From NCBI RefSeq assembly GCF_050920415.1, contig NZ_CP169309.1: a DNA stretch of 64,000 nucleotides; one strand, 5' to 3'. Position numbers and translations under genes: made by a program. Each line of letters starts with the position of its first letter. Within the stretch, counting starts at the first letter, position 1. Below are positions 9,049-12,244 of this stretch, in pieces. The stretch is from Escherichia coli. Its GTDB lineage: Bacteria > Pseudomonadota > Gammaproteobacteria > Enterobacterales > Enterobacteriaceae. The notes under the pieces are model-generated. The model did not search any database. It was not told the DNA's origin and saw only the letters and a list, made by a program, of their open reading frames with translations.

Positions 9049-9930
9049 TTACATAGATGTTTCGTTTAATTCTTCCCGACGAACGCTGTAAACGTCGGTG
9101 GCTTTTGCCAGCAGTTCGTCATCATCTGAAAGTTTTTGTGCAATGTATTTGTAAGCCTTATCCAGTTCGGAGACAGTGCTGTAATTCATCGCTGCGCTGG
9201 TAAAGGCCATCAGCATTTCTTCTGGATCACGGCTATCCGCTTTACGAGTTTGCTCATCAGGCTTTTTCACTGGTTTAGCGTTGATCAGACTGTTCATTCC
9301 CGCAGCAGTAGTTGTTTGCGGAGTAATGTCTCGCTCAACGCGCGGTGCCGTTTCCTGTAATTCGTCAGGGGTGTAAACACCGAGAAGCACATCAGGAGCG
9401 TGCAGGCGAGCCCATCGTTTCGTGCAAAGATAGGCAAGCTGCTGGCGCGGATCCTGTTCCCACAATGGAGAGTTACGCACTCCGGCTTGCGCCATACTGA
9501 TGGTAAGCTCACGGGGTTCTGCTTCTCCTTTAAGAACTGCTGACACAGTTACCGTCAGATTCGGTGATTTATCTGTTTTGCCGTTAACATTCGACCAGTC
9601 ACCGCTCCAGCGATAATTCAGGCGTGTCGCTAGCAGGCTGGAAGAGGATACGACCGCGTTTACCAACTGTGCTTCGTAGCCTAACGTTCCGTTTACCACA
9701 TGCGTTTTCTGCGCCACGGCGAAAGGGTTCATTCCCCACTGTGCCGCCTGCATGGTCACCGCCAGACAATCGGCAGTTTTGCCTTCAAGATGTTTCGGTA
9801 CAGTCGCTTTGCTTTGTGACATCAACTCCGCGAAACGCACCAGTTGATTCATGCCCTCCGGGCTGAAGATTGCCGCAGCAGTACCTACAGTTGCGCCTGG
9901 TTGTGATGTGATTGCGATATCATTGCTCAT
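9049..9930 (-). CDS. RecT/Bet-family single-strand annealing protein
   Basis: 293 aa; shares ERDITP and surrounding pattern with lambda Bet; start overlaps exonuclease stop. Confidence 0.65.
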   Translation of the reverse strand: MSNDIAITSQPGATVGTAAAIFSPEGMNQLVRFAELMSQSKATVPKHLEGKTADCLAVTMQAAQWGMNPFAVAQKTHVVNGTLGYEAQLVNAVVSSSSLLATRLNYRWSGDWSNVNGKTDKSPNLTVTVSAVLKGEAEPRELTISMAQAGVRNSPLWEQDPRQQLAYLCTKRWARLHAPDVLLGVYTPDELQETAPRVERDITPQTTTAAGMNSLINAKPVKKPDEQTRKADSRDPEEMLMAFTSAAMNYSTVSELDKAYKYIAQKLSDDDELLAKATDVYSVRREELNETSM

Positions 9931-10748
9931 ACGTACATATCCTGTTTACGTGCCCAGTCAGGGCGTTTAATAATTTCCACGCCGCCCCATTCATCATTGA
10001 TGCGGCATTCGTGATAGGTATTCAGATCCCGGCGGAACAGAGCGTGCCCGGCATCGACATCCGGCGCATCCAGCTCGAACACGCGTACCGGATACCGACC
10101 ACAATCAATGCTTTCGCTCACGGCAAGAAAGAAAAAACCATGCGACTGACCAGTAACCCTCATTGCGCCTTCGCGGTACATTGCGTCCTGCACGTGGTAG
10201 CGGAATTCCTCGATGTGGCGTGCAAAACGATCCATATCTGCAACCTTTTTCACGTCGACGATCACGTTGTGCTCGTTCAGCCATTTGTCTGGACGAATGC
10301 GGCACAACTCACCAGTCTCTTCATCATTCCAGTACATTGATGCTTCGCAGTAACCAGGTGCTTCCAGCATCCAGCGTGCCGCCGGGTGAGCCATTGCGCT
10401 ATCACGCATCAGCTCCAGTTTCCGCCACTGCTCGGCATCAAGTACCGTAATCCCCATATCCGCTACATCACGAAGAAATGCTTCTTCGTCAGCTTTACCT
10501 TGTTTCGTCCGACGATCGAACTTCGGTGAAACAATGAAGCGTTTGTCGAATTCTCCAGGCTCCAGAAGCAGAGAGTGCAATGCGGTTCCCATATCCAGTG
10601 CAGACTTTTTCTCTTCGTCTTCTGGTGCTGCCTGAACCCATTTAAGAAGCGCCGGATTCTTGGCAACCATGTCCAGTTGCGACTTACTCACGCCGTCACC
10701 GGCGTGGTAGTCTTCGTTGCTGATGTCGAAATAAATTCCCGGTTTCAT
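9927..10748 (-). CDS. PD-(D/E)XK phage exonuclease (DUF3799/RecE-like)
   Basis: 273 aa; D...VDVKK motif; upstream partner of annealing protein. Confidence 0.65.
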   Translation of the reverse strand: MKPGIYFDISNEDYHAGDGVSKSQLDMVAKNPALLKWVQAAPEDEEKKSALDMGTALHSLLLEPGEFDKRFIVSPKFDRRTKQGKADEEAFLRDVADMGITVLDAEQWRKLELMRDSAMAHPAARWMLEAPGYCEASMYWNDEETGELCRIRPDKWLNEHNVIVDVKKVADMDRFARHIEEFRYHVQDAMYREGAMRVTGQSHGFFFLAVSESIDCGRYPVRVFELDAPDVDAGHALFRRDLNTYHECRINDEWGGVEIIKRPDWARKQDMYV

Positions 10749-11044
10749 GCCGCTTCCCTCTGCCCATCAATCCGATCCGCCAGATCCCAGCGGGCGATAA
10801 TTGCCATTGCCTCGCGACGGTAGGCATCCATAAGTTCTTCGAACTCAGGGCTGTCTTTAGCTGCCTCCAGCACTTCCTGGCGAACGCCTTTGCCTGTTAC
10901 ACCGTCAAAAGTTGAGGCCAGTTGATGAAGCCGGATGCTATCAATCAGTTCAACTTGTCGGTCATATAGCTGTTCTGACAGGCGGTAGTCCTTGTCGAAT
11001 GCCAGCATGATTTTTTGAAGATTTTTCTGCTGATTAACGTTCAT
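10745..11044 (-). CDS. hypothetical protein
   Basis: ATG at 11044 with GAGGTG RBS; stop overlaps exonuclease start. Confidence 0.5.
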   Translation of the reverse strand: MNVNQQKNLQKIMLAFDKDYRLSEQLYDRQVELIDSIRLHQLASTFDGVTGKGVRQEVLEAAKDSPEFEELMDAYRREAMAIIARWDLADRIDGQREAA

Positions 11045-11051
11045 ACCCACC

Positions 11052-12086
11052 TCAATATTTGATATACGCGTCCTGCACTTTGCCGCCAGCGATAGCCAAC
11101 ATTGCTTTCTGCGCGAATTCTTCGGGAATGCCTTGGGCTATCAGATCTGCGATTACTCTGCTGTTAACGGTACGGCGATGCTCTTTATCTGCAGCTCGGC
11201 GCGATTCTTCGTCGGCGATACGCTTCTGTTCGTCAAGGCGGGCTTTTTCTGCCGCCTCTTGGCGTCGGCGTTCCTCGGCAACGGCTTCTTCTTTTTCGCG
11301 TCGTGCACGCTGCTCTGCTTCAATTCGCTGACGTTCTGCTACTTCAGCACGTGCTTTTTCTTCCGCCGCCAGGCGTTCCGCAGCCTCAATTTCAGCTTTC
11401 GCTTTTTGTTCAGCTTCGAGCCTGGCCTGTTCAGCAGCTTCCCGGCGGATATTCTCTTCTCGCTCAATGCGCGCTTTTTCCTCCGCTTCTTTGCGAAGTC
11501 GCTCCAGCTCAGCGGCTTCATGCTCGCGTTTTTGAGCTACTGCGAGTGATTCTTCCAGTTTCTGGATGGTTGAATCCTTGGCTACTCCAGCTTCTGCTGC
11601 GTACTCCTGCCAACTTTCATCAAGTGCTACTGATTTAGCCTCTTGAATTCGTTCCTGAATATCAGATGATGGCAAGTAGTTTCCGGAGAGATCGATCACG
11701 TCAGCTAGTGCTCGCAAATTTGTCAGGCGTTGTTGCAGTGCTTCAGTGCGTAATTTCTCCGCATTTTCCCACTCGGTGAGTGGGCGGCGTACTTCATCAC
11801 GAAGCCGATCGCATTCGGTTACGAAGCGTCGTAACTCTGCTTCAACTACTTTCGGCTGTTCTTTCAGGCGTTTCAGATAATCACGTCCTGGTTTTTCTAC
11901 CGCTGTTTTACTTCTTGAAACCTTCGCAGCCAGAGATGCAATGCGCTTTCTGCCTTTGTCTGTGCTAATGTCAGGCACTTCATTAACACCTTCACGGATC
12001 TGCTCGAGAAACTTTTCCAGCCCTTTTTCAACGTAAATTCTTGGTGCCATGTCTGGTGTGATTTCGATGATTGATAATTCACTCAT
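11052..12086 (-). CDS. coiled-coil phage protein (E/A/R/K-rich C-terminal half)
   Basis: 344 aa, long EAxxRAxxE repeats; function unknown. Confidence 0.6.
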   Translation of the reverse strand: MSELSIIEITPDMAPRIYVEKGLEKFLEQIREGVNEVPDISTDKGRKRIASLAAKVSRSKTAVEKPGRDYLKRLKEQPKVVEAELRRFVTECDRLRDEVRRPLTEWENAEKLRTEALQQRLTNLRALADVIDLSGNYLPSSDIQERIQEAKSVALDESWQEYAAEAGVAKDSTIQKLEESLAVAQKREHEAAELERLRKEAEEKARIEREENIRREAAEQARLEAEQKAKAEIEAAERLAAEEKARAEVAERQRIEAEQRARREKEEAVAEERRRQEAAEKARLDEQKRIADEESRRAADKEHRRTVNSRVIADLIAQGIPEEFAQKAMLAIAGGKVQDAYIKY

Positions 12087-12244
12087 TTGCTAACCTCCTC
12101 CCATATCTCGTTATCGTTGGCCACATCGCGAGCTTCTTTGCTGACGAAAGCCCACTTAATGCCTTCCTGTAAGGTGCGGAACTTCCAGCTCATGAATCCG
12201 CATGCAGTAACGCAGTACCAACCGTTGATGATTTTCCACTGCAT
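12083..12244 (-). CDS. small Cys-containing protein (53 aa), first gene of leftward early operon
   Basis: MQWKIINGWYCVTACGFMSW...; GAGGT RBS; stop overlaps next ATG; not in ORF track (<60 aa). Confidence 0.4.
   Translation of the reverse strand: MQWKIINGWYCVTACGFMSWKFRTLQEGIKWAFVSKEARDVANDNEIWEEVSK

Follow-up and report, generated by a model that had tools for sequence, protein, structure and literature searches.

The closest described counterparts of the locus analysed here are the RecE/RecT pair of the Rac prophage, the early operon of the Uetakevirus phages (phiV10, epsilon15, phiv142-3, ZX5 and TL-2011b) and the Red module of phage lambda (gam-bet-exo, PL/OL). The locus lies in a 64,000-nucleotide stretch of Escherichia coli DNA (contig NZ_CP169309.1 of assembly GCF_050920415.1), referred to below as the window. 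Five consecutive minus-strand genes encode, in order, a 53-residue protein, a 344-residue long-helix protein, a 99-residue acidic helical protein, a RecE-type exonuclease and a RecT-family annealing protein. Very probably, these genes make up the half nearest the promoter of an early-left operon (PL type), carried by a phiV10/epsilon15-like podophage (Uetakevirus) that is integrated beside guaA. An earlier reading made from the DNA letters and their open reading frames (the sequence-only reading) had described the five as a leftward recombination operon; its observation is real, and its interpretation is correct in essentials. The operon comprises ten genes, not five, and is an ordinary module of a RecE-type exonuclease and a RecT-type annealing protein, already annotated in public records.

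As in Rac, the exonuclease gene precedes the annealing-protein gene and its stop overlaps the next start (by 8 nt in Rac and by 4 nt at this locus); each pair belongs to a leftward early operon in a lambdoid-style prophage. The exonuclease is 49% identical over 268 residues to the catalytic domain of Rac RecE (residues 595–862) and has the same active-site residues. Unlike in Rac, the N-terminal part of RecE, about 590 residues long, is missing, leaving a protein of 273 residues that consists of the nuclease domain only, and the annealing protein has diverged so far from Rac RecT that BLASTP no longer detects similarity (expectation value, E, 0.08). With lambda Red the locus shares a repressor gene, a terminator, an operator-flanked leftward promoter and small early genes, with xis and int functions coming after the recombination module; some relatives of the 344-residue gene head true gam-bet-exo modules. 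It differs from lambda in the order of the pair, exonuclease before annealing protein rather than the reverse, in a nuclease of RecE type and not of lambda Exo/YqaJ type, in two palindromic 15-bp operator-like sites against three of 17 bp in lambda, and in that no N-like antiterminator or Gam homologue was recognised here.

The likeness to the Uetakevirus phages is far more extensive. Their operon is the same one, 94–98.6% identical in DNA, and shares its repressor, terminator, promoter, small first gene, 99-residue gene, exonuclease, RecT and AlpA with the locus. The five-gene region is 98.6% identical to phiv142-3 across the whole query, gives partial matches to phiV10, ZX5 and TL-2011b, and is 100% identical to E. 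coli SCU-116 and several other RefSeq E. coli chromosomes. Two differences stand out. Among the phage records searched, the 344-residue gene occurs in phiv142-3 only, and in phiV10, ZX5 and TL-2011b the small first gene leads straight to the 99-residue gene; in phiV10 and O157 typing phage 9, the exonuclease and RecT are fused by a 1-nt insertion. The flanking order in the window is guaB, guaA and a P4-type integrase gene, followed by a phiV10/epsilon15-type prophage some 39 kb long. At least part of the operon is present in 564 of 5,426 complete E. coli genomes, with at least 80% of the query covered in only 26 of those 564. A six-frame listing of open reading frames (ORFs) and direct reading of the minus strand give the five genes exactly as the sequence-only reading had them, and the same frames and coordinates are annotated in RefSeq (SCU-116) and GenBank (phiv142-3). 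As a textbook-type RecET module of a common E. coli prophage, with identical RefSeq gene calls, the operon itself offers nothing new. Transcription, repression, coupling and recombination activity are all predicted from sequence, which counts against the account given here as a whole.

Table 1. Features of the early-left operon and its control region (positions in the window).
Feature	Position	Strand	Evidence or remark
RecT-family single-strand annealing protein, 293 residues	9049..9930	-	PF03837, phrog_561
RecE-type PD-(D/E)XK 5'-3' exonuclease, 273 residues	9927..10748	-	PF12684, NF007259, PDB 3H4R
Acidic helical protein, 99 residues (phrog_856)	10745..11044	-	phrog_856 E 2e-54; slot of gam in some relatives
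Long-helix protein, 344 residues (phrog_1376)	11052..12086	-	phrog_1376 E 1e-121, AlphaFold, context census; optional insert
Trp-rich protein, 53 residues (phrog_898)	12083..12244	-	phrog_898 E 3e-38; YCVTxCG motif
Ribosome-binding site GAGGTAA of first gene, with orphan operator half-site AGGTAA	12251..12257	-	sequence
Operator-like palindrome TTACCGTTGAGGTAA	12264..12278	.	abuts -10 hexamer, covers expected transcription start
Sigma-70-like promoter (PL analogue), TTGACA-17 nt-AATTAT	12278..12306	-	10/12 consensus matches
Operator-like palindrome TTACCCGTTAGGTAA	12326..12340	.	perfect TTACC-N5-GGTAA, 20 nt upstream of -35 hexamer
Intrinsic-terminator-like hairpin and T-run	12358..12377	-	8-pair stem, 6 GC pairs, then TTTTATT
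Repressor-like gene, 194 residues, helix-turn-helix	12398..12982	-	phrog_8 transcriptional regulator E 4.5e-27; upstream, co-directional
AlpA/Xis-like gene	8999-8751	-	downstream operon continuation (7508..8999)
38-residue gene	8754-8638	-	downstream operon continuation
PerC-like gene	8641-8342	-	downstream operon continuation
MT-A70 methylase gene	8349-7699	-	downstream operon continuation
DUF1382 gene	7702-7508	-	downstream operon continuation

The sequence-only reading had named profile searches for the exonuclease and the annealing protein as the test of its calls, and both proteins are placed in the families proposed. The exonuclease matches Pfam PF12684 (E 2e-22, residues 21–254 covered), positions 606–873 of the NCBIfam exonuclease VIII model NF007259 (E 3e-92) and the sequence of the RecE nuclease domain crystal structure (PDB 3H4R, E 2e-76). 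Its residues D154, D165 and K167 align with D748, D759 and K761 of RecE (RPD...DVK), the catalytic residues in the numbering of the RecE structure paper. Against the 866-residue equivalog model of full-length exonuclease VIII, the protein scores 310 bits, below the curated cut-off of 1269. Its sequence puts it in the nuclease-domain family and does not make it an equivalog of full-length RecE. We also considered whether the two upstream proteins represent a split N-terminal region of RecE, and found no similarity to RecE 1–590. By analogy to RecE, the exonuclease should resect the 5' strands at double-stranded ends.

The 293-residue protein matches the Pfam RecT family PF03837 (E 1e-30, residues 35–197 against model positions 2–188 of 198) and phrog_561, 'RecT-like ssDNA annealing protein' (E 5e-144); NCBIfam gives nothing up to E 0.01, and the PDB has no sequence match. 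It lies next to a cognate exonuclease gene, joined to the RecE-type gene by an ATGA overlap, and this arrangement is conserved in relatives. By analogy to RecT, it would be expected to anneal complementary DNA to the 3' single strand that resection exposes. The TL-2011b orthologue (L096 665–1546) is annotated 'enterohemolysin 1', a historical misnomer that is still spreading in phage records. Through this name, the protein fits the EHAP1 branch of the RecT/Redbeta superfamily, to which 'enterohemolysin 1' belongs in the 2002 classification. PMC8093625 mentions that branch. With a compact RecE limited to the nuclease domain and a RecT of the EHAP1 branch, the pair is a candidate for recombineering trials.

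Upstream of the five genes, the locus has the layout of a lambdoid PL/OL region, in which a leftward promoter flanked by repeated putative repressor sites lies downstream of a repressor gene and a terminator. The sigma-70-like promoter is the only strong minus-strand promoter-like site that a scan finds upstream of the operon. The two palindromes that flank it are 62 nt apart, a spacing conserved in relatives. In about 45 relatives, the position and the arms of both palindromes are constant and the 5-bp spacer varies, as expected of a protein-binding site. The phages phiv142-3, ZX5 and phiV10 carry equivalents of the repressor-like gene under the annotation putative repressor, and phiV10 annotates a terminator at the position equivalent to the hairpin, which is terminator-like in sequence and would end the repressor transcript. 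In the lysogen, the helix-turn-helix repressor would be expected to occupy the two palindromes bracketing the promoter; after induction, a single leftward transcript would span the ten genes. No minus-strand terminator is predicted in the scanned part of the operon, 8500–12357. As for an N-type antiterminator or nut site, the first gene matches phrog_898 only and no Pfam family, and Rfam gives nothing above threshold, though no search was aimed at nut. The Rfam scan of 7000–13600 returned just one match, below threshold, a RyhB-like hit at 12352–12410 on the minus strand (over the terminator hairpin) that scores 25 bits against a gathering threshold of 55 (E 0.22) and is almost certainly due to chance.

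The sequence-only reading had the five genes joined throughout by ATGA or 1–4 bp overlaps and took this to imply tight translational coupling along the chain. Three of the four junctions are indeed 4-nt ATGA overlaps (53-residue gene to 344-residue gene, 99-residue gene to exonuclease, exonuclease to RecT). The fourth, between the 344- and 99-residue genes, reads TGAGGTGGGTATG and is a 7-nt gap, with the Shine-Dalgarno sequence over the stop codon; the 99-residue gene starts at an ATG at 11044, and an in-frame GTG at 11050 would cut the gap to 1 nt. A near-identical locus (L012, IMG/VR 2737471821_000011) has a first gene of 49 residues, with the last base of its stop codon 9 nt before the ATG of the coiled-coil gene; the ATGA at the first junction is therefore not universal. 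Outside the operon in phiv142-3, same-strand junctions show a 4-nt overlap in 8 of 44 cases and any overlap in 17 of 44 (39%). Set against this background, three 4-nt overlaps in four junctions give a binomial P of about 0.02, an enrichment that is mild and typical of phage genomes.

The ribosome-binding sites divide the genes more clearly. Strong Shine-Dalgarno sequences, spaced 5–9 nt, precede four of the five genes (GAGG for the 53-residue gene, GGAGGAGG for the 344-residue gene, GAGGTG for the 99-residue gene and GAGGG for the exonuclease). The recT gene has a weak site, only AGGA, 9 nt before its ATG, in addition to the ATGA overlap. Because of the shared ATGA and this weak ribosome-binding site, RecT is, on sequence, likely to be translationally coupled to the exonuclease; coupling would match the amounts of the two proteins. 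Elsewhere in the chain, strong ribosome-binding sites of their own mean that the overlaps need reflect only the usual compact packing of phage genes. Tight coupling as first proposed is thus plausible for the last junction alone and merely possible at the others.

The competing explanation, that the overlaps are compact phage packing throughout, with each gene translated independently and no regulatory coupling, deserves serious weight even though we judge it somewhat improbable. The strong ribosome-binding sites before four of the five genes, together with the one gap, mean that coupling is not required, and overlaps are frequent across the annotated relative phiv142-3 as a whole; both facts tell against coupling. 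What packing explains less well is the pairing of a lone AGGA at 9 nt with the ATGA overlap at recT, at a junction that is itself conserved. In phiV10 (L003 2850–4610) and O157 typing phage 9 (L093 850–2610), the exonuclease and RecT form one ORF of 586 residues, caused by a single extra A (AAAA in place of AAA) about 20 nt before the ATGA. In EC.W1-9, a close relative of the fused phages, the sequence is 1 nt shorter and the two genes stay separate, as they are here. Since phiV10 and the typing phages may share one lineage, the fusion probably arose only once. The two proteins can therefore be made one to one, perhaps with some benefit, and an in-frame fusion in one lineage fits a need for matched dosage.

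The 344-residue protein matches phrog_1376 over nearly its full length (residues 2–344 against positions 5–362 of a 362-position profile). An alignment of 37 diverse members of this family has three parts: a conserved helical N-terminal domain (residues 1–170) with invariant T42, G45, K60, G67, K75, R100, P102 and E107, a segment of variable length rich in E, A, R and K (about 185–300), and a conserved C-terminal segment of about 45 residues (about 300–344) that ends in I-x-Y. The family of the N-terminal 170 residues counts at least 4,870 clusters at 50% identity (E up to 1e-3). AlphaFold models the protein with a mean predicted local distance difference test score (pLDDT) of 85 and helices at 43–126, 157–252 and 260–317. 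Its description as highly repetitive was overstated: Tandem Repeats Finder gives no tandem array, and what remains are three imperfect 27-nt copies 111–120 nt apart. Residues 185–300 are 84% E, A, R, K or Q.

Searches outside the family returned little. Against Pfam at E up to 0.1, neither the protein nor 36 diverse relatives gave a match, DUF1351 and Sipho_Gp157 included, and NCBIfam (above cut-off) and PADLOC were likewise empty. By sequence, the PDB gave a single non-significant match, to the helical tail region of myosin VI (E 0.047); the C-terminal 44 residues gave only non-significant matches to RuvA domain III (E about 0.5). Foldseek with the model found nothing in the PDB, and its BFVD matches were all uncharacterised phage proteins. 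TolA identity was rejected, at 16 bits against an equivalog cut-off of 213 and with a match limited to the E/A/K-rich stretch. Names carried by database relatives (TolA, colicin import membrane protein, EnvC, chromosome segregation ATPase) are composition artefacts; 'cell envelope biogenesis protein TolA' and similar labels on many entries of the family (P0398–P0455 and others) stem from the E/A/K-rich helix. The inserted gene has no anomaly in GC content, and no paper was found on the unknown genes of the operon.

The genomic context of phrog_1376 is more informative. We took the 80 closest of 584 related viral loci in IMG/VR and applied a crude ORF calling; downstream proteins were then grouped into clusters, whose representatives received PHROG labels. 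An annealing-protein gene lies on the same strand within 3.5 kb downstream in 76 of 79 phrog_1376 loci, and the annealing families are diverse: RecT (phrog_561 and phrog_148), Bet (phrog_252) and Erf-like (phrog_155 and phrog_1097). These modules usually include an exonuclease, of RecE or YqaJ type. Enterobacter prophages beside guaA (L005–L007) provide a clean example of module swapping within a conserved frame. They keep genes for a 49-residue protein, a 355-residue coiled-coil protein and a 99-residue protein in the same order, along with AlpA, a PerC-like gene, a methylase and an integrase, and have a YqaJ-type exonuclease and a 340-residue RecT in place of the RecE-type exonuclease and the RecT found here. 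Among distant members of the family, one is accompanied by ERF and YqaJ (L008) and another has RecT two genes upstream (L099).

A similar habit has been described in Firmicute phages, where DUF1351, Sipho_Gp157, DUF2483 and Mu Gam-like genes adjoin erf, sak4 or recT, occupying an upstream slot for erf and sak4, and analogous function was inferred by the authors from the shared position (PMC8093625). phrog_1376 shows the same positional habit in proteobacterial phages. It differs in that homology of the 344-residue protein to DUF1351 or Sipho_Gp157 is not detected by Pfam profiles, and in that the three-part architecture, variable E/R/K helix included, is a feature of phrog_1376. The combination of an N-terminal domain, a variable helix and a C-terminal domain suggests a tether, one end of which could hold the recombination proteins, or DNA ends, and the other a partner such as a host protein of replication or repair. 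Tentatively, and as a possibility that we hold to be rather unlikely, we propose that phrog_1376 is a general accessory factor of proteobacterial phage annealing modules (RecT/Bet/Erf), acting as a spacer or tether, with the 99-residue protein as a non-homologous substitute for Gam.

Several points limit the assignment of these two proteins to the recombination module. The census counts are not independent, many of the loci being related prophages. Two of the four informative distant members have no nearby annealing gene: one lies among DNA polymerase III genes (L009), and the other has nothing recognisable beside it (L097). The 344-residue gene is missing from most E. coli copies of the operon and is therefore dispensable for the exonuclease/RecT pair; it and the 99-residue protein are assigned to the module by position only. 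For the 99-residue protein, the structure model is weak (pLDDT 73, predicted template modelling score 0.35), and comparison with lambda Gam shows no profile similarity (hhalign probability 0.3%).

The 344-residue protein could instead be unrelated to recombination, a mobile accessory gene serving host takeover, counter-defence or exclusion. Its patchy distribution (26 of the 564 operon-carrying genomes, and absence from phiV10, ZX5 and TL-2011b), the distant members that lie beside replication genes or near no recognisable recombination gene, and the lack of similarity to any DNA-metabolism family all agree with this. Such an origin accounts poorly for a position that, in 76 of 79 loci, is immediately upstream of an annealing gene, the genes coming from no fewer than four unrelated families, or for the retention of the gene with its 99-residue neighbour when the exonuclease family is swapped. 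PADLOC offers no match, and Firmicute phages repeat the pattern with other uncharacterised upstream genes (PMC8093625). On balance, we regard a role outside recombination as a substantial minority prospect. This widespread family, unnamed in databases or mislabelled TolA, regularly heads recombination modules; knowing its role could explain an ignored conserved component of phage recombination and might improve recombineering.

The 99-residue protein belongs to a family found in Enterobacteriaceae only (67 clusters). It has no Pfam match, and a PHROG search up to E 10 returns phrog_856 alone; a PDB profile search and a fold search were both empty. RacC was tried as an identity and rejected, with no profile similarity. 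Its gene occupies the position of Gam, immediately upstream of the exonuclease and annealing-protein genes. In four related loci (L049, L066, L071 and L081), the same slot holds true lambda GamS homologues (phrog_1050, 93–94 residues, by alignment), which sit directly after the coiled-coil gene, with the same 7-nt gap in three of the four. The next gene is Bet in three of these loci and a phrog_561 RecT in L049, and a YqaJ-type exonuclease is also present.

These observations raise the possibility that the 99-residue protein is a functional analogue of lambda Gam, blocking host RecBCD so that linear ends survive. Besides the shared slot, its small size, its acidity (net charge -5), the predicted helical hairpin and the ATGA junction with the exonuclease gene would suit such a function. 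Neither its sequence nor its profile resembles Gam, however, no PDB sequence or fold match was obtained, and the structure model is of low confidence. Several unrelated families of about 100 residues use the slot (phrog_3486 and C54 among them), and position alone is weak evidence. We therefore consider a Gam-like activity doubtful.

That the operon is a decayed, non-functional remnant of a cryptic prophage is very improbable: nothing specific supports it beyond the fact that repression in a lysogen keeps activity invisible in the sequence, and against it stand ten intact reading frames, a 98.6% identity of the region to phiv142-3, a phage with its own complete-genome record, and the conserved catalytic residues of the exonuclease.

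Downstream of the five genes, the chain of overlaps continues through the rest of the operon. The alpA gene overlaps the 38-residue gene by 4 nt (ATGA), which in turn overlaps the PerC-like gene by 4 nt (GTGA); the PerC-like gene overlaps the MT-A70 methylase gene by 8 nt, and the methylase gene overlaps the DUF1382 gene by 4 nt (ATGA). There the chain stops, meeting head-to-head the integrase gene of the plus strand, whose 3' end is at 7504.

At the other end, the first gene encodes a protein that the sequence-only reading called Cys-rich. This does not hold, since the protein has two Cys, both in the conserved YCVTxCG motif, and five Trp. It has no Pfam, NCBIfam or PADLOC match, and an identity with Rac YdaE was rejected for lack of similarity. 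The claim that the ribosome-binding site of this gene lies inside an operator half-site is borne out as a sequence match, with GAGG at 12257–12254, 9 nt before the ATG, and AGGTAA, an operator arm, at 12256–12251; a regulatory role is a candidate only. Because its partner arm, by direct reading, matches at 0 of 5 bases, we call it an orphan half-site. It is kept in the close relatives L012 and L016, and L018, L036, L043 and L056 have a full palindrome beside or overlapping the ribosome-binding region.

The palindrome TTACC-N5-GGTAA occurs at 16 sites in the window, against 1.0 expected. Apart from the two at the leftward promoter, two more perfect copies lie in the rightward control region. 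Outside the leftward promoter, palindromes stand at 13038–13052, 13086–13100, 13423–13437, 15369–15383, 15431–15445, 18455–18469, 18473–18487 and 21620–21634, and the motif is not confined to the immunity region. Pairs occur in other intergenic regions of the prophage, one palindrome overlapping the ribosome-binding site of a gene that starts at 15450, and two lie between a terminator and the gene for the terminase small subunit. The repressor or another regulator could thus act genome-wide through these dispersed sites.

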